A DNA stretch of 64,000 bases from a virus (IMGVR_UViG_3300044825_001821:1-64000); one strand, 5' to 3'. Shown: positions 1,527 to 60,956, numbered from the stretch's first letter. A program made the numbers and translations. The notes: generated from the letters alone by a model not told the origin.

Positions 1527-2239
1527 AACATAACTCAATTATTCCCAACAAACCTTTATTCATTGTGAGTTCCGCTTTGAATTCACAAATGGGGGTTATT
1601 AATCAAGATGATAGACTAGATCAAACACTTGATGGATTAAAAACTTTAAGAAAATACGTACCAGAAGCAATTATTTTACTTGTTGATGGCTCACCTGTAC
1701 CTGTTCAGGATTTTAAAATTAAAGAAATATCAGAACATGTTGATTTTATCGTTGATTTGTCTGGAGATGAGCAGATTGTAAAATTTGCTATCAATCATCG
1801 CAAAAGTGAGGCTGAAAATGTATTGATGATAAAGACAATGATGCTATTAAAAAAAGAACCCGCAATGATGAAGCTGATGCATTCAGTGAATCGCATCTTT
1901 AAATTATCAGCAAGAACAGACATTCATTCTTCCTTTAAAGTTGATGATCATCTTCATTTTGGTAAATATGTCTTTAAAAAAAGAATGCCAACATGGATTC
2001 AGGACAATAGAAAGTCATTTGCAACAGATTTATTAATTACCAGATTTTTCTCTATGTGCCCATCACTTATTGATGAGTATATCGCTTTAGCCACAGATAA
2101 TATTAATCTGATGATTCAAACCAGAATTGACACTGAACATGCACATTTTGTAAACATTAAGAAAGACCGACTTGTTGAACTTGACGAAATTCACTGTCAG
2201 GGTGTCATGGCAGGCACAGGAGATGTAGAAGTTTACTAA
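1514..2239 (+). CDS. Hypothetical protein, possibly glycosyltransferase-like
   Basis: 241-aa ORF in the cyclase/SDR cluster; ILLVDGS and FKLSAR segments resemble phage GT-like proteins. Confidence 0.4.
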   Translation: MASIEHNSIIPNKPLFIVSSALNSQMGVINQDDRLDQTLDGLKTLRKYVPEAIILLVDGSPVPVQDFKIKEISEHVDFIVDLSGDEQIVKFAINHRKSEAENVLMIKTMMLLKKEPAMMKLMHSVNRIFKLSARTDIHSSFKVDDHLHFGKYVFKKRMPTWIQDNRKSFATDLLITRFFSMCPSLIDEYIALATDNINLMIQTRIDTEHAHFVNIKKDRLVELDEIHCQGVMAGTGDVEVY

Positions 2240-2281
2240 ATACTAAATATCGTAAACAACTGCCGCAGAGGTAGGGGGATT

Positions 2282-5023
2282 ATGAAATTTAGAGATTTTC
2301 TACGTGAACAAAAGGAAAAACATGCCGTCCTGGCTTTTGGGCGCATGAATCCGATCACGAATGGTCACGAAAAATTAGTCAATAAAGTCAAAGAAATTGC
2401 CGATAAGGTCGGTGGTTCTCATCACATCGTCCTGTCACACTCACAGGACGCAAAGAAAAATCCCCTTACAGCAGACCAAAAAGTCAAACACGCCAAACGT
2501 GCCTTTCCTGGCACAAACTTCACAGCAGCATCCAAAGAGAAACCAACATTCTTTGATCACGCAGAGGCATTACACAAGAAAGGTGTAACGCATCTGCACA
2601 TGGTCGGTGGTTCTGATCGCACAGAAGAATATCACAGATTGCTGCACAAATACAATGGCGCACATGAAGGTGCTCGTTTCAACTTCAAAGAAATTAAAGT
2701 ACACTCGGCTGGTGAACGTGATCCAGATGCAGAAGGTGTGACTGGCATCTCAGCATCAAAGATGCGTGAACATGCAAAGAGTGGTGATCTTGATTCATTC
2801 AAGAAAGGTGCACCATCGTCAATGTCACATGCACATGTCAAACAAATGTTCAATGATGTACGCAAGGGTATGAAACTACATGAAGAAATCATTCGTGAAG
2901 GTGTACATGACAAAGGCATTTTCAAAGCAGTGTTTCTTGGTGGTGGTCCTGGCTCAGGCAAAGACTATGTGTTGAGTAAGACACTTGATGGTCATGGTCT
3001 AACAGAAATTAATTCTGATAAAGCACTTGAGTATCTGATGGACAAAGAGGGTCTTGACAAAAAGATGCCTGACAATGAAGAAGCACAGCGTAATGCAGTT
3101 CGCAAACGTGCAAAGAATGTTACAGAATTGCGTCAGCGTTTGGCTCTTCATGGCCGTAATGGATTGATTATCAATGGCACTGGTGATGATCCAGAAAAGT
3201 ATGCCAAGATTAAAGAAATGCTTGAAAAGATGGGTTATGAAACATCAATGATCATGGTCAATACAGATGATGAAGTATCAAAAGCAAGAAACGTTGAGCG
3301 TGGACAACGTGGTGGCCGCACCGTGCCAGAAAATATTCGTAAAGAAAAATGGGATTCTGTGCAAGCAGCACGCCCAATGTTTGGTAAAATATTTCGTGAT
3401 AGTTATACTGAATTTGATAACTCAGAAGATTTGCGTACAGCACCACCAGAAGTTGTTGAGTCAAAAACAAAAGAGTTGGATGGCATCTTCAAAAATATGC
3501 AGAAGTTTGTAAACAAACCACCGAAGAATGATTCAGCAAAAGGTTGGATTGCTACAGAGTTAGGTAAAAAAGATACTGCACCAATTCGTACCGACATGAA
3601 ACCACATGCTGCTGCCGGCACACATGATGAAATGAACACGATGGGTCTTGAGTATTATGGTTTTGGCCGTTATGGAAAAAATGGTAAAGTCACACATCGT
3701 TCGGTACATGGCAGTCTTGTACCAGTAGAGAAGATTGCAAAAACTGTTGAGACTCATCAAAAGAAAATGGCTAAGATAGATGAAGCCGTTACAGTTTCAG
3801 TTACAGGTGATACAGTAGAAGAAGTTACACGTACACTCCGTTTGCTCAAATCTGATGAAGAGGAAATGACAGAAGAAGATATCAATACAATGTCTGATCC
3901 CGGTGCGTTTAATTTATTAACTCTTGGTCAAAGTATGATCAAAGAAGATTTGCGTAATTGGTTTAATCCAAAACATCCAGAAGGTGGATGGAAACGAATC
4001 AATAGTAAAGGTGAAGCAATAGGTCCTTGTGCAAGAGAACCTGGCGAACCAAAACCCAAATGTATGTCAAATGCAAAACGTGCAAGTCTTTCAAAGAAAG
4101 AACGTGCATCAGCAGTCGCAGCAAAACGCCGTCATGATCCAGTAGCAGATCGTTCAGGCAAGGGTGGAAAACCCGTAAATGTTTCTAGTTATGGCAAAGG
4201 TAAAATAAGTGAAGCTGCTTATCCTGGTAACATTGGTATGATGGAAGTTATGAAGTTTCATCAAAAAGCAACTGACGAGCAGAAGAAACAATTTAAGAAA
4301 CACATGGCTGATAAAAATCACAAAGAAGCGTGGAAATTAGTTCAACATGTATCTGGTACAAAGCTCATTGGTAAACAATTTGAGGAAATAGAAAAGAAAC
4401 AAAAATTATTAACAGATAAAAATGGTAAAGTTCGTTTGTTCTTCATTCGTGGCTCAGCAGCGAAAGAAGCACATCAAAAGGGCGGTACTGTAGCAAAAGT
4501 TGGTAAGAGATATGTTGTCAAACTTAGAGAGGACTTAGATGAAATTTATACACCTAGTGATTCTACGATTGAAATCCATTATGGACAGAATAGTTCCACC
4601 CCTTCCGCAGCAGAATTACAAAAGGGTAGAACCAGTGTTAGAAGAAAAGAAAGACCCAGCGCCGACAAACCCGTTGCCGAAGCAAGAAGAACCATCACCC
4701 TTGCCACAATCAAAGAAAACTGGCAAAAGAAAATCGAAGAGTCAATCGACAAAGGCATAGAACCCGGCACTTCTATGGCTGGCACTGGTGAATCACCTGC
4801 ACGTGATATGGGTGAGAAATTAGATAAGAATGGTAAAGCTACACAAGTAACATGTAATGGTACAGGAGCGGGCATAGATTGTCCAAAGCATGGTGCGAAA
4901 AACTGTAGACTTACTGAACTTACCGGTGATACGACAACAGCAAGCATTGGTGATCAGAAAGAAGATGAATTAAAGAAAAAAGGTATCTCACTAACAACAT
5001 TTAAAAAGAGAAATTACATATGA
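2282..5023 (+). CDS. Multidomain putative internal head protein: cytidyltransferase-like domain + zeta-toxin-like P-loop kinase + small modules
   Basis: FGRMNPITNGHEKL (HIGH-like), ISASKMR, VFLGGGPGSGKD; N-terminus MKFRDFLRE; (L/I)xE linkers. Confidence 0.75.
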   Translation: MKFRDFLREQKEKHAVLAFGRMNPITNGHEKLVNKVKEIADKVGGSHHIVLSHSQDAKKNPLTADQKVKHAKRAFPGTNFTAASKEKPTFFDHAEALHKKGVTHLHMVGGSDRTEEYHRLLHKYNGAHEGARFNFKEIKVHSAGERDPDAEGVTGISASKMREHAKSGDLDSFKKGAPSSMSHAHVKQMFNDVRKGMKLHEEIIREGVHDKGIFKAVFLGGGPGSGKDYVLSKTLDGHGLTEINSDKALEYLMDKEGLDKKMPDNEEAQRNAVRKRAKNVTELRQRLALHGRNGLIINGTGDDPEKYAKIKEMLEKMGYETSMIMVNTDDEVSKARNVERGQRGGRTVPENIRKEKWDSVQAARPMFGKIFRDSYTEFDNSEDLRTAPPEVVESKTKELDGIFKNMQKFVNKPPKNDSAKGWIATELGKKDTAPIRTDMKPHAAAGTHDEMNTMGLEYYGFGRYGKNGKVTHRSVHGSLVPVEKIAKTVETHQKKMAKIDEAVTVSVTGDTVEEVTRTLRLLKSDEEEMTEEDINTMSDPGAFNLLTLGQSMIKEDLRNWFNPKHPEGGWKRINSKGEAIGPCAREPGEPKPKCMSNAKRASLSKKERASAVAAKRRHDPVADRSGKGGKPVNVSSYGKGKISEAAYPGNIGMMEVMKFHQKATDEQKKQFKKHMADKNHKEAWKLVQHVSGTKLIGKQFEEIEKKQKLLTDKNGKVRLFFIRGSAAKEAHQKGGTVAKVGKRYVVKLREDLDEIYTPSDSTIEIHYGQNSSTPSAAELQKGRTSVRRKERPSADKPVAEARRTITLATIKENWQKKIEESIDKGIEPGTSMAGTGESPARDMGEKLDKNGKATQVTCNGTGAGIDCPKHGAKNCRLTELTGDTTTASIGDQKEDELKKKGISLTTFKKRNYI

Positions 5024-5667
5024 AATCATTCAAAGATTACATGACAGAGAGATGTTGGCCTGGATATAAACCAGCGCCAGGTAAAAAAGCATATGCAAAA
5101 GGTTCATGTGTAAAAGAAGAAATTGAACAGATTGATGAAATCTCTAAAGAAACTGCTGGTAAATATTTGACAGCGCCACAGGGTAAAGGAGCAAACAAGT
5201 ATAAAGTTAGTTCCGATAAATCAGTCTATCCTGATATAGCAACAATGTCAAAGCATAGCACAAATGTTCGTAGAGCATTGAAAAGAAGTGAAGGTAGTTC
5301 ACTGTACAAAAAACCAGATTATTACAAAGAAGAGGAAGATTACGAAGCAGATGATGGTTCACTCACAGAAGACCAATTAGAACAGATTCAAGAAGTCGCA
5401 GCATGGCAGCGTAAAGAGGGTAAATCTGAATCTGGTGGTTTAAATCGTAAAGGTATCGAATCATATCGTCGTGAGAATCCTGGTTCAAAACTATCGATGG
5501 CTGTAACAACAAAGCCAAGCAAATTGAAGCCGGGTTCTAAAGCAGCAAATCGTCGTAAGTCATTCTGTGCAAGAATGGGTGGTATGAAGCGCAGACTAAC
5601 ATCTACAAAAACTGCACGTGATCCAGATTCACGTATCAACAAAGCATTGAGAAAGTGGAACTGCTAA
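5020..5667 (+). CDS. Putative internal head protein, modular
   Basis: N-terminus MKSFKDYMTE, EEIEQIDE linker, C-terminal AAWQRKEGK...SFCARM...LRKWNC module recognisable from T4-like phages. Confidence 0.65.
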   Translation: MKSFKDYMTERCWPGYKPAPGKKAYAKGSCVKEEIEQIDEISKETAGKYLTAPQGKGANKYKVSSDKSVYPDIATMSKHSTNVRRALKRSEGSSLYKKPDYYKEEEDYEADDGSLTEDQLEQIQEVAAWQRKEGKSESGGLNRKGIESYRRENPGSKLSMAVTTKPSKLKPGSKAANRRKSFCARMGGMKRRLTSTKTARDPDSRINKALRKWNC

Positions 5668-6978
5668 GTGGCACAGTTTAGAACGGACTTACATAAGATA
5701 GATTCAGGACAAGTATTCACTCGTTATGAAGTGAATATGATGTCTGATCGTCTTTCACCATCTGGCACTTTGACAGATGCGTTTGGCCGTTTGCGTATCG
5801 TAAATCCTTTTACTTTGTTTGAAAGCACACATCGTTTTTCTGATAATGGTCTGTGGGTAACATCAAACACAGCAAGTAATAGTTCATACACTTTTGTTGA
5901 AAATCAAAGCATGATTGCGATGACTGTTGGCACAACTGCAAATGCTGAAGTTGCCAGAGAAACGACAAAAGTTATGTCTTATCAACCAGGTAAATCTTTG
6001 TTGATTATGTCAACATTTGCTATGGAAACACCAAAAGCAAATGTTCGTCAAAGAGTAGGATATTTTGGTCAAAGTAATGGCATTTATTTGGAAAATGATG
6101 GCACAACAACTTATTTTGTATTAAGAAGTAACACATCAAGCACAGTTACAGAAACAAGAGTTGCACAATCAGATTGGAATGTAGATAAGTTTGATGGTAC
6201 AGGCTACTCAGCACAAAGTGGTGGCGCAGAACACACTGATGGTGTTGATGTGAGTAAAACAAACATTCTTTGGATGGACATTGAATGGTTAGGTGTTGGT
6301 GATGTTCGTTGTGGTTTTGTAGTTGATGGAAAAATGATTCCAGCACATATATTCCATAACGATAATAAAAATTTACAACCATACATGACTACGGCTTCTT
6401 TGCCATTGAGATATGAAATAAAGAACACAGGAATTACAACAAGTAACTCAACATTAAAACAAATATGTTCAACAGTCATTTCAGAAGGTGGTTATGAATT
6501 ATACGGCTCACAACAAGCCATTCAAACACCAATTGGTTCACCTATTGATTTACCAACGTCTGGAACATATTATCCAGTTATTTCACTAAGATTAAAAGCA
6601 AATCGTTTAGATGCAATCGTAATTCTTACTGCACTATCAATATTGGGTATTACGAATAACTCAGTTTATAATTGGCAAGTACGAGCAGGTGCGAATACCA
6701 CTGGAGGTGGAACTTGGGTGAGTGCGGGAGATAATTCTTCTGTTGAATACAAAATTGATGGCGGCACAATGACTGGCGGCAGAATATTAGCATCAGGCTT
6801 TACTGGCGCAACAATTAGTGCAATACCAGTTGATATTCTTAAAGAAGCACTATTCAAATTTCAATTAGAAAGAGACAGTTTCACTAACACTCCATACGAA
6901 CTAACATTATGTGCTTCTGCTACCATAAACGGTTCAGACATATATGCATCGATGGATTGGGAAGAGATTACAAGATAA
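5668..6978 (+). CDS. Putative virion structural protein
   Basis: 436-aa beta-rich protein (DAFGRLR, WLGVGDVRCGF) resembling structural proteins of T4-like aquatic phages. Confidence 0.55.
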   Translation: MAQFRTDLHKIDSGQVFTRYEVNMMSDRLSPSGTLTDAFGRLRIVNPFTLFESTHRFSDNGLWVTSNTASNSSYTFVENQSMIAMTVGTTANAEVARETTKVMSYQPGKSLLIMSTFAMETPKANVRQRVGYFGQSNGIYLENDGTTTYFVLRSNTSSTVTETRVAQSDWNVDKFDGTGYSAQSGGAEHTDGVDVSKTNILWMDIEWLGVGDVRCGFVVDGKMIPAHIFHNDNKNLQPYMTTASLPLRYEIKNTGITTSNSTLKQICSTVISEGGYELYGSQQAIQTPIGSPIDLPTSGTYYPVISLRLKANRLDAIVILTALSILGITNNSVYNWQVRAGANTTGGGTWVSAGDNSSVEYKIDGGTMTGGRILASGFTGATISAIPVDILKEALFKFQLERDSFTNTPYELTLCASATINGSDIYASMDWEEITR

Positions 6979-7001
6979 TAAAACTAAATCAGGAGAACAA
7001 C

Positions 7002-8312
7002 ATGTCAATTTTCAATGACAAAGCACTGAAAGGTGTAGCAGAAGCAGCAGCAAAAATCATGGCAGAAACAAGCCATGGTACACATCCAAAGACACCTAAA
7101 GAAAAATCTTTAGCAGCACTTGCACATCCAAAAGATAAGATTACACACAAAGATGTGTTGGTAGGTCGTGGTGTTCTGAAGAAAGAAGAGAAAGAACAAC
7201 TTGATGAAGTTGGTGATACACCAGCAGGTAGAAAAGCACTTGGTTCATATGTGACCAAAGCAATTGCCGACAAGACAAAAGATCACACAAAAGGTCTGCG
7301 TAAGGCAACATCACGCATGTACAAAGATGATTACTATGGTAAAAAGAATGAAGAAGTTGAACTGAATGAAGAAGCAGAACAACTTCAAGAATATGAATCA
7401 AAAGGTGGCGTATACAAACACAAGGGCACCTACGGTTCTTCATATAAGACAGATGAAGAAGGCGATGAGAAGAAAAGCAAAAAGGGTAAAACCCTTGGTG
7501 CTCGTCAAGATTTTATCCGTTCAACCCGTGAAAATGAAAAACCAGGTGAGTACAAAAAAACTGAAGGCGCATACAAAAAAGAAAGTGATAAGGCTAAAAA
7601 AACTAGAGCCAAAAATTATGAAAGCATGGCAAAATATATTTCTGCAAATGAATCATTGTCATTTACAGAGATGCTTGAATTGTACAATGAACAGGGTTTA
7701 AAAGTTCTTGCACCAATTGAAACGGAAGAAATGAATATTGATGGCACAACAATTGAAGTTATTGATGCCGACAAGGTAAATGGTGTTGTTGAAACTATCG
7801 TTGAAGAACCAACAAACGATGAGTTCACAAAAGAGTTTGAAGATCAAAAAGCAAGTTTTGAGGGTAAAAAGAAACAACCAAAAGTTGCTGCTGGTAAAAC
7901 AACTGGCGTAAAAGTTATGCCAGAAGAAGTTGAACAAATTGATGAGTTGTCAAGAGGCACTTTAGCATCATATACTAATAAAGCAGCGCATAATATGTCT
8001 ACAATGACGGGAATAGCTGCAAAACATTCAACACCAGCGGGCAATCCTAAAAAAGGCTCCGAAGAAAAGGCTAAAAAACTTTCTAAAACTATTGTTAATA
8101 GAATGCATGGTATTAATAGATCAACTTCCCGTTTGGCTAAAGAAGAAGTTGAACAAATTGATGAGCGTGAACTAACAAAAGATGAAGCCAAAAAGAAAGA
8201 AGATTATGTGATGGGTATGAAGAAAGGTCTTTCTGGTTTCAAACAGCGTTATGGTGAACGTGCTAAATCAGTAATGTACGCAACAGCAACTAAGATGGCA
8301 AAGAAAGACTAA
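7002..8312 (+). CDS. Putative internal head polyprotein
   Basis: AGGAG before ATG 7002; repeated EEVEQIDE / EEVELNEE linkers between basic modules. Confidence 0.65.
   Translation: MSIFNDKALKGVAEAAAKIMAETSHGTHPKTPKEKSLAALAHPKDKITHKDVLVGRGVLKKEEKEQLDEVGDTPAGRKALGSYVTKAIADKTKDHTKGLRKATSRMYKDDYYGKKNEEVELNEEAEQLQEYESKGGVYKHKGTYGSSYKTDEEGDEKKSKKGKTLGARQDFIRSTRENEKPGEYKKTEGAYKKESDKAKKTRAKNYESMAKYISANESLSFTEMLELYNEQGLKVLAPIETEEMNIDGTTIEVIDADKVNGVVETIVEEPTNDEFTKEFEDQKASFEGKKKQPKVAAGKTTGVKVMPEEVEQIDELSRGTLASYTNKAAHNMSTMTGIAAKHSTPAGNPKKGSEEKAKKLSKTIVNRMHGINRSTSRLAKEEVEQIDERELTKDEAKKKEDYVMGMKKGLSGFKQRYGERAKSVMYATATKMAKKD
7922..8165 (+). repeat. Identical 25-nt direct repeat AGAAGAAGTTGAACAAATTGATGAG (7922-7946, 8141-8165) encoding EEVEQIDE
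   Basis: Direct comparison; degenerate copies near 5116 and 8461. Confidence 0.85.
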
Positions 8313-8313
8313 T

Positions 8314-9627
8314 ATGAAAGTCAAACCTCTAAAAATCAAAATAAAGCAGCCGACACCAACGGCTGCTGAGAGGTTATATCAGAGACATCAGGAAATTCGA
8401 AAAAAGTCTGGACTTCCTGATCCTTCTGAATATAAGAAAAAACTTGATGCAATGAAGAATGAAGAGATAGAACAACTCGATGAGATGCCAGAGTCAAGCA
8501 TGAAAACCCGTGATGTACATGCTCATCTTAAAAAATCAGGTTGGTCACTTAAAAGAACTTCTGGTGGTCATGATGTGTATGGTCACCCAAAATCGAAGGA
8601 GAATATTTCTGTGCCAAGACATAAACAACTTAAAGCACCATTAATTCGTGGTATCATGAAAGCATCAAGAGTTTCTGAAGAGACAGAAATTGATGAACAA
8701 TTAGAAAAGAAAGGACGATTTGTGTCTGGACCACCTAAGAAAACATTTAAGGCACCCACGATTGTGTCGCCAATTAGAGAGGCGAAAGACCCACGTGAAT
8801 ATGATTATGAAGGTGATATGGCAATGTCACAACTTCGTTCACTCATATTCAATGCAGAAGATTTGATTGATCTGATGGAAGAAAATTCAAACTTACCTGA
8901 GTGGGTACAATCAAAGATTACACTTGCTGAAGATTATATTTCTACAGCAGCGAACTATCTGCGTGGTGAATTGACGGAAGCAGCAAATCCTGCACAACAA
9001 GCAGCAATTGCTATCAATATGAAGAAAAAAGGTATCAAACCTAAGAATGAAGAAGTTGAACTTTCTGAAGGTCGCCCATCACAGCGTCATCCATTAGAAG
9101 GTCATGAGTACCATAAAAAATCAGATGAGGCATTAGTTCATATTGCCAAAGATGCACATGCAGCAGCAGAAGCAATGAAAGGTCACAATACAGCAGCAGA
9201 GAACAAATATCGTGATCAAGCAAATGATTCTGCGACTGTAAGATACTATCGCAAGAAACATGGTATGCCTGATTGGTACAAAAAGAAGTATGGTCATGTT
9301 AAAGAGGAGATTGAGTATCTTGAAGAAAAGAATGCTCCAACTAATCCCGAATTGTGGTCAAGAGCAAAAGCACTTGCACGTTCCAAGTTTGATGTTTATC
9401 CATCAGCATACGCTAATGGCTGGGCAGCAAAGTGGTACAAATCTAAAGGTGGTGGTTGGAAAACTGTCAGTGAAGAAGCAGAAGAGCCAAGCATGGCAGC
9501 AAGAACTCTGTCACGTAAAGCACAGATCGTAAAAGATGCTGCAAAAAGTAAGAAAGTAGATAAAGAAGAGGCATCGGATAAGTTTCAGAAAGACCCCGAA
9601 TTGTCTAGCGATATACAGAAAACATAA
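8314..9627 (+). CDS. Putative internal head polyprotein containing a HicA-like domain
   Basis: MKTRDVHAHLKKSGWSLKRTSGGHDVYGHPKSKENISVPRHKQLKAPLIRGIMK lies between EEIEQLDE and EETEIDE; also LPEWVQSKI and YPSAYANGW modules. Confidence 0.7.
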   Translation: MKVKPLKIKIKQPTPTAAERLYQRHQEIRKKSGLPDPSEYKKKLDAMKNEEIEQLDEMPESSMKTRDVHAHLKKSGWSLKRTSGGHDVYGHPKSKENISVPRHKQLKAPLIRGIMKASRVSEETEIDEQLEKKGRFVSGPPKKTFKAPTIVSPIREAKDPREYDYEGDMAMSQLRSLIFNAEDLIDLMEENSNLPEWVQSKITLAEDYISTAANYLRGELTEAANPAQQAAIAINMKKKGIKPKNEEVELSEGRPSQRHPLEGHEYHKKSDEALVHIAKDAHAAAEAMKGHNTAAENKYRDQANDSATVRYYRKKHGMPDWYKKKYGHVKEEIEYLEEKNAPTNPELWSRAKALARSKFDVYPSAYANGWAAKWYKSKGGGWKTVSEEAEEPSMAARTLSRKAQIVKDAAKSKKVDKEEASDKFQKDPELSSDIQKT

Positions 9628-59744: not shown

Positions 59745-60410
59745 ATGCGAATATTTGAACATGTAAAGTTACCGCAACTACAATTTGATCTGAATGCTGA
59801 AACTACCGATAGTGGTAGACTTTATACTACGCCAGAAGGCAACAAGTATAAGTCTATCACTACGGTGCTTTCTAATTACAACAAGCAATACATTATGGAA
59901 TGGCGTAAGGCTGTTGGTGAAGAGCAAGCAAATAAAATATCAAGCAAGGCAGCAAATCGTGGTACAAAAGTACACAAAATATGTGAAGATTATCTGAACA
60001 ATGAAATACCAGAACTGAAGATGCAGATGATGATGCCTGATCTGAAGGAATTATTCTTCAAGATCAAGCCTTACATTGATGAGAATGTCGGCAAGATTTA
60101 CTCACAAGAGCAAGCACTTTACTCCGACAAATATCGTATTGCTGGCCGGGTAGACTTAATTGCCGAGTGGAATGGTAAGTTGTCGGTTATTGACTTCAAA
60201 ACTTCCACGAAGCAAAAAGACGAAGAGGATATTCAGAATTACTTTATGCAGTGTACAGCATATGCACTGATGTTTGCTGAACGAACTGGTATGTGGATTG
60301 ATGATATTGTGGTGCTGATTGCTACTGAAGAAGGTCCGGCGCAGGTCTTTGAGCGCCAGATTCATGATTATCGTGTGCCTCTATTAGAGTATATTGATAA
60401 ATATGCCTGA
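59745..60410 (+). CDS. PD-(D/E)xK (Cas4-like) exonuclease
   Basis: SITTVL, RGTKVH, AGRVD, IDFKTS, Q..AYA. Confidence 0.85.
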   Translation: MRIFEHVKLPQLQFDLNAETTDSGRLYTTPEGNKYKSITTVLSNYNKQYIMEWRKAVGEEQANKISSKAANRGTKVHKICEDYLNNEIPELKMQMMMPDLKELFFKIKPYIDENVGKIYSQEQALYSDKYRIAGRVDLIAEWNGKLSVIDFKTSTKQKDEEDIQNYFMQCTAYALMFAERTGMWIDDIVVLIATEEGPAQVFERQIHDYRVPLLEYIDKYA

Positions 60411-60425
60411 CACATTGGAGGTACT

Positions 60426-60956
60426 ATGCTATCATTCAAACAACACGTACAATTAGATGAGGGCAATCCACTTGCAAGGCTGGCTAAACATGCTGAAGAA
60501 GGTAGGCACTATGCTGTTATTTCCTCACAACGACCACATGATGAAGTATCGGCAGAAGATAATAAGAAGCATCATGAAGAACTTAAAAAGAAACTGACTG
60601 CACAGGGATATACTCATAAAGAAGTAGAAGGACATTGGGAAGGTGGAAAAGAAAAATCAATACTCGTACATGCGAAAGGCAAAGGCGAAGAGCACGGCAA
60701 ACAGTTGCTCCATGATATTAAAAAACATGGAGAACATTATAATCAAGACTCAATCTTACATCATGATGGAAAAACAGCGACATTGCATGGAACAAACAAA
60801 ACTGGATTCCCAGGACACGGCAAGACTGAAAACGTAGGTAAGATGGCTTATAACAAAGCACATGCACCATTTCAAACAGAGATGAAACCGAAGTCAGACA
60901 AGCCGTTAAAGCCTGGTAGAACAAGCAAGAGTTCTGCAAGATTTACAACGGAGTGA
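60426..60956 (+). CDS. Putative internal head protein
   Basis: N-terminus MLSFKQHVQLDE; YNQDSIL. Confidence 0.55.
   Translation: MLSFKQHVQLDEGNPLARLAKHAEEGRHYAVISSQRPHDEVSAEDNKKHHEELKKKLTAQGYTHKEVEGHWEGGKEKSILVHAKGKGEEHGKQLLHDIKKHGEHYNQDSILHHDGKTATLHGTNKTGFPGHGKTENVGKMAYNKAHAPFQTEMKPKSDKPLKPGRTSKSSARFTTE

Follow-up and report, generated by a model that had tools for sequence, protein, structure and literature searches.

The internal proteins of bacteriophage T4 carry a ten-residue N-terminal tag, the capsid-targeting sequence (CTS), in which positions 4 and 7 are aromatic and positions 8 to 10 read I/L-x-E. This tag is removed by the prohead protease gp21, the small basic products are ejected together with the DNA, and one of them, internal protein I (IPI), counteracts restriction. 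For head targeting the ten N-terminal residues of IPIII are enough; within the tag, positions 4 and 7 are important for targeting and positions 8 and 10 for processing, and gp21 cuts after L/I-x-E (PMC9026906). Here we describe a cluster of five genes, A to E, located on the + strand at positions 2282-9627 of a 64,000-nucleotide stretch of viral DNA (IMGVR_UViG_3300044825_001821:1-64000; hereafter the window), which represents the first 64 kb of a complete virus record of 172,439 bp with terminal repeats. We consider it likely that the products of genes A, B, D and E are head-addressed cargo proteins, which are cut at their leaders and internal joints by the prohead protease of this phage.

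The closest described systems share some of these features. T4 internal proteins are single small proteins encoded by separate genes, whereas in the present phage the tag stands at the start of chains with as many as eight modules, enzymes included, the cut motif recurs at each internal joint, and the chains D and E have no N-terminal tag. The T4 ADP-ribosyltransferase Alt is, like the cargo proposed here, a head-packed enzyme (∼40 copies) that is trimmed by gp21, at both ends, and injected, but it is one enzyme with two terminal propeptides and not a string of unrelated modules. The T4 proteins gp22, gp67 and gp68, which are acidic and are cut by gp21 at many L/I-x-E sites, offer a parallel to the processing proposed here; however, they are scaffold rather than cargo, most of their fragments leave the head to free space for the DNA, and they are neither modular nor shuffled. 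The motif of the phiKZ-type protease is S/A/G-x-E. In phiKZ, 201phi2-1 and SPN3US, a diverged protease of the gp21 type cleaves the inner-body and ejection proteins after Glu (PMC9026906, PMC5694885), and the short motif, the redundant sites and the presence of injected proteins among the products are all reminiscent of the locus described here. Nonetheless, these phages belong to another lineage, lack a T4-type N-terminal tag, and remove propeptides rather than separating chains of swappable mini-modules. The chains are best read as an extension of the internal-protein and Alt system of T4 to proteins of several modules, some of which are enzymes. In the open-access literature we found no paper describing a CTS or protease-cut polyproteins in cyanophages and their kin, and none reporting the tag or the chain layout outside the T-even phages.

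Leaders and acidic joints of the candidate cargo proteins

The phage is T4-like, with terminase, sheath, tube, portal, Peptidase_S77, scaffold and gp23 genes at 120-131 kb of its genome, and its nearest cultured relatives by protein similarity are the Kyanoviridae and T4-like phages of Pelagibacter and Methylophilales. It encodes a prohead protease of the gp21 family (gene at genome 127586-128236; PF03420, Peptidase_S77, matched at 127625-128095 with 118.8 bits, E 2e-35), the gene for which is adjoined by those for the scaffold (gp22-type) and gp23. In the stretch of gp23 that aligns with the T4 gp23 cut site LTE65↓A66, the phage protein has IKE46 and LQE52, and this agrees with an unchanged specificity of the protease.

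The genes A to E are tightly packed, the ATG of gene B overlapping the stop codon of gene A. Protein A (2282-5023, +; 913 amino acids) consists of the nine-residue leader MKFRDFLRE (2282-2308, +), which corresponds to the T4 tag minus one residue (F3, F6, L7, E9), followed by seven modules. Protein B (5020-5667, +; 215 amino acids) starts with MKSFKDYMTE (5020-5049, +), in the same register as MKTYQEFIAE, with which both ipII and ipIII begin in the T4 record. A third leader in the window, the 12-residue MLSFKQHVQLDE (60426-60461, +), heads an S-adenosylmethionine (SAM) lyase family protein (60426-60956, +) and represents the T4 tag plus two residues. Outside the window, MKFMDFITE starts a DUF6267 protein at genome position 166595, and MKTFKEHISE a 131-amino-acid protein at 168404. 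The leaders fit the CTS of ipII and ipIII, with an aromatic residue at 4 and 7, I/L/M at 8 and E at 10, and those of A, B and the SAM lyase end in LRE, MTE and LDE, respectively, i.e. in a site of the L/I-x-E type. The Met at P3 in the B leader was likewise present in 4 of 60 distinct leaders of proteins carrying DUF6321, the last domain of B. All three leaders that a first-pass annotation of the window had quoted were found in place, and its account of the MKTYQEFIAE-type tag and of gp21 cutting after (I/L)xE agrees with the T4 ipII/ipIII record and PMC9026906. That the SAM lyase and the genes at 166595 and 168404, which lie just upstream of the window start on the circular map, encode head cargo as well is the best explanation for their leaders.

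The leaders are strongly conserved. F3, F6, L7 and E9 of the A leader were invariant in 16 of 16 aligned sequences (A and 15 homologues), and the processing site at the leader end was kept in the 15 homologues and in 111 of 120 DUF6321 proteins. The profile of the 60 distinct DUF6321-protein leaders reads M, K, S/T, F, K, x, F/Y/H, I/L/V/M, x, E. When back-translated leader patterns were searched against the genome, one stray site was matched; all other matches were open reading frame (ORF) starts, at 2282, 5020 and 166595, of which 2282 and 166595 (the DUF6267 gene) were the only two matched by the pattern of the A leader. The reversed pattern, used as a control, gave 0 matches.

Proteins B, D (7002-8312, +; 436 amino acids) and E (8314-9627, +; 437 amino acids) contain acidic linkers ending in (I/L)-x-E, all of them on the + strand. 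Protein B has EEIEQIDE (5116-5139). Protein D, which consists of five or six modules, has KKEEKEQLDE (7179-7208), the tandem sites EEVELNE↓EAEQLQE↓ (7350-7391, with EEVELNE at 7350-7370) and two copies of EEVEQIDE, at 7923-7946 and 8142-8165, which form the left and right flanks of module D4. The five modules of protein E are joined by four linkers, including EEIEQLDE (8461-8484), EEVELSE (9049-9069) and EEIEYLEE (9304-9327). B, D and E together contain five copies of the strict form EE[IVL]Ex[ILM]xE, more than chance would give, since a single copy, at the C-terminus of the portal protein, was found among ∼1000 other ORFs from all six frames of the genome. The linker strings quoted in the first-pass annotation were all located. 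Its description of short basic modules separated by acidic linkers does not fit protein A, which has no acidic linkers, its junctions being plain (I/L)-x-E, and the first two modules of which are enzymes of 197 and 295 residues.

An AlphaFold2 model of protein E showed folded blocks at residues 12-46, 60-120, 160-214 and 258-327. Since the mean predicted local distance difference test (pLDDT) score was 56, only the domain pattern of this model is usable. All four linkers are located in segments with pLDDT <50 between the folded blocks, and in the model they look accessible to a protease.

Conservation and shuffling at the joints

To follow the joints through related phages, 80 loci were fetched via the conserved gene C, the window proteins were cut at their candidate sites, and the resulting modules were located in these loci. 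In 117 of 155 distinct module-start flanks [ILM]-x-E stood exactly before the module, as compared to 2.7 ± 1.6 for positions drawn at random from these proteins. However, the boundaries had been chosen at the window proteins' own sites, so that common descent inflates this count. The fairer figure comes from the flanks in which the nine upstream residues are unrelated to those in the window, where 41 of 73 still carry [ILM]-x-E. Clustering of the edges of BLAST high-scoring segment pairs proved too coarse as a blind boundary finder. At individual joints the conservation was complete: before VGDTPAGR in D, which follows the linker at 7179-7208, 6 of 6 distinct homologous flanks end in [IL]DE, and before KN[AV]PT in E, which follows the linker at 9304-9327, 8 of 8 distinct flanks end in L[ED]E or IDE.

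Moreover, leaders and linkers interchange in the same register before the same module, as was observed for E4, DUF6321, B2 and the A3 kinase. Module E4 (GRPSQRHP...) follows either an internal joint ending in KEEVELSE or the leader MKTFKSFIVE, and in one relative MRKEEVELSE stands before it at the ORF start. DUF6321 follows the internal joint EEVELDE or the leaders MKRLKEFMTE and MKNFKEFLFE. The kinase, which in protein A is preceded by EEIIRE, is encoded by a separate gene in HTVC008M, where it has the leader MIPFILKE (MIPFILKE↓GLYDPGIF). In other relatives the same kinase sits behind CTS-like internal joints, such as DVNEDFQELLIE, and further polyproteins contain A5 immediately behind [IL]-x-E.

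When homologues of D and E were aligned, whole modules proved to be gained or lost exactly at linkers. Module D4, for instance, is missing from most close relatives, which retain one linker at that place, and its copy in the window lies between two identical 22-nucleotide direct repeats, GAAGAAGTTGAACAAATTGATG, at 7923-7944 and 8142-8163, which encode the linker. Across B, D and E the linker DNA is 71-91% alike, and this likeness would permit recombination between joints. Since each module has its own predicted cut joint and the joints are alike as DNA, recombination at these places could insert, delete or exchange modules. Fusions across gene borders are also evident from PHROG profiles, as phrog_455 unites DUF6267 and the cytidylyltransferase in one protein, and other profiles unite the tail of A with B, and the last module of D with the SAM lyase.

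The turnover of modules was also apparent for DUF6321. A search in a collection of 5.8 billion proteins gave at least 8000 relatives at 90% clustering in one length band. The 120 best of these proteins, of which the domain was 94-100% identical to the query domain except for one at 83%, had lengths of 128-341 amino acids and 95 distinct middle regions. A leader stands at the start of 111 of the 120, and in 115 the domain is immediately preceded by [ILMV]-x-E. Comparison of module order across related phages, as suggested in the first-pass annotation, thus revealed modules that shuffle and linkers that are conserved exactly at their boundaries.

Some joints look like the remains of gene fusions. 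In relatives of A, certain internal joints read VNEAFEEFINE, which matches Y-Q-E-F-I-A-E of T4 by residue class. In addition, many internal joints in the related loci and in the window (7917-7946, 8455-8484) have retained a Met that precedes the Glu of the putative cut by 10-11 residues, as in MPEEVEQIDE, MKNEEIEQLDE and MRKEEVELSE. Together, the CTS-like joints and the Met residues before joints suggest such fusions; the Met residues look like fossil start codons of once-separate genes, and internal translation starts are possible.

Virion proteomes, proposed pathway and competing explanations

The proteome of CsCl-purified virions of cyanophage S-CREM2, a cultured relative, comprises 52 of 221 ORFs (PMC10665884). 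When applied to the S-CREM2 genome, our leader pattern marked ORF6 (SAM hydrolase; MKDFDSFLEE...), ORF13, ORF136, ORF154 (cytidylyltransferase) and ORF175, and the same leader is found behind a GTG start on ORF14 (kinase). Five of these six ORFs (6, 13, 14, 136 and 154) are in the virion set, compared with a base rate of 23.5% (binomial P ∼0.0035); with the pattern-only ORFs it is four of five (binomial P 0.012). By tblastn, A2, A5, B2, part of A3 and the SAM lyase matched the virion-detected ORFs 154, 160, 14 and 6, the homologue of A2 being ORF154, that of A5 lying within ORF160, and that of the SAM lyase being ORF6. ORF160, too, is built as a chain, its A5-like, CWPGY and DVWPSAYA mini-modules being joined at EENLEE and EETEISE. 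The core cytidylyltransferase (T4-GC190) was also detected in virions of S-SM1 (Sullivan et al. 2010; PMC3037559), and enzymes of the same families as those found here (cytidylyltransferase, kinases, SAM hydrolase) are associated with purified particles of S-SM1, S-CRM01 and S-CREM2. The papers on these proteomes propose no targeting or processing mechanism, and how such enzymes enter the virions, and whether they are truly inside, was left open in the 2023 S-CREM2 paper. The logic of tag and linker would supply such a mechanism, and tags plus protease-site joints would explain why "non-structural" enzymes appear in cyanophage virion proteomes.

In the pathway that we propose, the genes would be expressed late, and the tag of about ten residues, M-K-x-F-x-x-[FY]-[ILM]-x-E, would draw the proteins into the assembling scaffold core; proteins without the tag may instead be targeted by acidic linkers, which agree with it in length and ending. 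An active gp21-family protease would cut after the Glu of (I/L/M)-x-E at the leader and at every joint between modules. The pieces freed in this way would be a cytidylyltransferase-like enzyme, a P-loop kinase, an RNase with the HicA fold, DUF6321 and a dozen small, mostly basic modules, and these would remain in the DNA-filled head and exit with the DNA at infection, like IPI-III and Alt of T4. Judging from T4, from the SAM lyase and from the HicA fold, the chance that the pieces are ejected and serve in host take-over or counter-defence is close to even. The notion of a delivery cassette for host take-over or anti-defence domains, as put forward in the first-pass annotation, is plausible for the SAM lyase and the HicA fold, while several acidic modules may be scaffold-like rather than effectors, and gene C (5668-6978), in the middle of the cluster, does not appear to encode cargo.

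A number of points weigh against this pathway. Cleavage and ejection are inferred, and the same applies to the targeting of these particular proteins and to the action of the pieces on the host. A T4-type leader is missing from the N-termini of D (7002) and E (8314), contrary to what might be expected from the capsid targeting proposed in the first-pass annotation, which for A and B is supported by the leaders and more generally by the gp21-family protease and the virion-detected homologues. Head targeting of D and E is for this reason a proposal only, and the sole hint for it is the acidic joint at an ORF start in a relative (MRKEEVELSE). In protein A, (I/L)-x-E is present in 13 copies where ∼8 are expected, the motif being short, and depletion of interior (I/L)-x-E sites within the modules was not significant (9 observed versus 12.7 expected, P 0.17). 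Such interior sites are absent from 16 of 20 modules, unlike module E3 (8698-9069; residues 129-252 of E; pI 5.0), which is helical and has five of them. The inflation of the 117 of 155 flanks by common descent belongs here as well, as do the exceptions among the flanks, which are mostly distant cyanophage polyproteins with V-x-E or other joints in place of [ILM]-x-E. Lastly, the evidence for late expression is weak. A tandem CTAAATACTAAATA, a late-promoter-like motif, is located at 2236-2249 (+), ∼35-45 nucleotides upstream of gene A, NTAAATA is also found just upstream of the gp18, gp19, gp22, gp23 and SAM lyase genes, and GATAAATA lies at 60396-60403, 23-30 nucleotides upstream of the SAM lyase ATG. 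However, TAAATA occurs 73 times on the + strand, and the full late-promoter form TATAAATA matched once in the window versus 3.7 matches expected, without enrichment. Because only the looser NTAAATA precedes late genes and TATAAATA is not enriched, we give the motif little weight.

Conceivably, the pieces are cut and retained in the head but are architectural, the basic ones neutralising DNA charge or aiding packaging and the acidic ones acting as scaffold, and not effectors. We regard this as unlikely. Most modules are indeed small and basic (pI 9-11.4), like T4 IPII and IPIII, of which the role is still unknown, and there are four acidic modules, of which E3 is riddled with sites like a scaffold protein. 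On the other hand, the nucleotidyltransferase of A2, the kinase of A3, the HicA RNase fold of E and the SAM lyase are recognisable as enzymes for which no function within a capsid suggests itself, and the fast turnover of modules, with 95 middle regions in 120 DUF6321 proteins, resembles arms-race variation. It is less probable still that the proteins are packed in the head as intact multi-domain cargo, from which at most the leader is removed, with the acidic stretches serving as flexible spacers or scaffold-binding repeats. Like ordinary spacers, the linkers have an acidic composition, with disorder or helix predicted for them, and the virion proteomes of relatives report whole ORFs only. 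Yet in the linkers P3 is held at [ILM] and P1 at Glu, whereas P2 and the other positions vary, a register that a spacer does not need; they end at the very residue where the N-terminal leader ends in other phages, and the core proteins of T4 offer a precedent, as gp21 is known to cleave them at accessible L/I-x-E sites (PMC9026906).

The conserved Glu also bears on the view that these are ordinary cytoplasmic enzymes and hypothetical proteins, of which the leader-like starts and linkers are unrelated to the capsid, for example as recombination joints, since such joints would not need a conserved Glu as their last peptide position. This view would require detection in virions to be due to carry-over, and co-purification or carry-over was indeed allowed as an alternative by the S-CREM2 authors (PMC10665884), which counts against head packaging; in addition, the conservation of the linkers extends to their DNA, and a cassette is bordered by them. 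However, the over-representation of leader-bearing ORFs in the S-CREM2 virion set, the detection of the cytidylyltransferase in S-SM1 virions as well, and the fit of the leader, position by position, to the experimentally defined T4 tag make a cytoplasmic role highly improbable.

If proteins A, B, D and E are cut head cargo, a wider possibility arises, which we put forward tentatively and judge somewhat less probable than its opposite: one portable peptide grammar, consisting of the tag or an acidic joint ending in (I/L)-x-E, may be common to T4 and to abundant aquatic T4-like phages (Kyanoviridae and kin) and serve as both head address and cut signal. It would form a plug-in system that makes any joint-bearing domain an injected cargo, be it a SAM lyase, a HicA RNase that is inactive until release, a nucleotide enzyme or an unknown mini-protein, and arrays of such domains would make up a rapidly evolving first-strike kit against host defences. 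The injected kit could then be read from sequence in thousands of uncultured phages, so that the injected proteome of any such phage would become listable, and the modular layout suggests how phages swap their early-acting cargo.

Module families and neighbouring genes

Protein A matched PHROG cytidyltransferase profiles (E 9e-64 and 1e-45) and Pfam Zeta_toxin/AAA_33 (E 3e-13); its homologues have 733-919 amino acids, and (I/L/M)-x-E is conserved at their junctions. Module A2 (2309-2899, +; 197 amino acids, ending in EEIIRE) is a cytidylyltransferase-like nucleotidyltransferase, which matched PF01467 with 23.4 bits against a cut-off of 21 and has the (H/T)-x-G-H motif as TNGH (residues 26-29). 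Against the NMNAT profile A2 scored far below the cut-off, and NCBIfam gave only a generic nucleotidyltransferase domain. Module A3 (2900-3784, +; 295 amino acids, ending in KMAKIDE) is a P-loop kinase of the Zeta_toxin/AAA_33 type with GGPGSGK at residues 221-227. A sequence search of the PDB with the A2-A3 enzyme pair gave weak adenylate-kinase matches only. A NadR-like role of A2-A3 in the salvage of nicotinamide adenine dinucleotide was dropped, as the PDB and NCBIfam searches gave no support for it. The modules A4-A8 (3785-5020, +) cover residues 502-555, 556-644, 645-754, 755-820 and 821-913, with boundaries at IDE, IKE, ISE, LDE and IEE; for residues 556-913, the ESM Atlas returned only unnamed viral clusters, all with scores <0.85.

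In protein B, the leader is followed by a Cys-rich mini-module, a middle module and DUF6321 (5395-5664, +; PF19846, E 1.7e-16; pI 11.4). The HicA-fold module of E (8485-8697, +; ending in EETEIDE) matched PF07927 with 37.8 bits against a cut-off of 27 (E 2e-9) and has the alpha-beta-beta-beta-alpha fold of HicA, and Foldseek aligned it with the HicA structures 6g26, 4c26 and 5yrz at template modelling (TM) scores of up to 0.84 (6g26_F: TM 0.83, root-mean-square deviation 1.2 Å). For the antitoxin HicB, the sole PF15919 match in the genome had 15 bits, which is below the cut-off, and three internal stops. Since no HicB was found above the cut-off, the module is not filed as part of a toxin-antitoxin system. 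The protein encoded at 60426 belongs to the SAM lyase family by sequence (PF23780, 47.8 bits against a cut-off of 28, residues 40-145), its activity being predicted. The first-pass annotation described the modules as short and basic. Most of them are small and have a pI of 9-11.4; the acidic exceptions are A4, B3, D3 and E3 (pI 4.1-5.5). Module E3 may be degraded in the manner of a scaffold protein and not delivered. The DUF6267 protein (genome 166595-167818; E 3.5e-115) has a K-W-D-G motif that recalls motif I of nucleotidyl-transferases (ligases).

Protein C (5668-6978, +; 436 amino acids) has a GTG start directly after the stop codon of B and neither a leader nor linkers, and it matched phrog_1645 (E 1e-130). 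Its AlphaFold2 model has two concanavalin/GH16-like beta sandwiches and a disordered N-terminus of 59 residues. The best Foldseek match was the receptor-binding domain of mycobacteriophage TM4 gp23, lichenases were matched as well, and a PDB sequence search with protein C gave no match. On the basis of the model, we treat this lectin/GH16-like protein as a putative glycan-binding structural protein of the virion that is encoded inside the operon and is not cargo.

To our knowledge, gp61.1 is not a listed head protein of T4. This 54-amino-acid hypothetical protein (NC_000866 18966-19130) begins with MKTFKEFIKE, a near-perfect CTS. Between the portal and protease genes of the present phage, a 222-amino-acid ORF without family match (genome 126124-126792), which begins with MKSLLEFKSIVEE, occupies the place of the T4 core proteins gp67 and gp68. 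In cyanophages, the homologue of gene C lies between gp16 and gp17, beside a polyprotein and a protein of ∼105 amino acids that starts with MKSYNEFISE or MKSFKQFISE.

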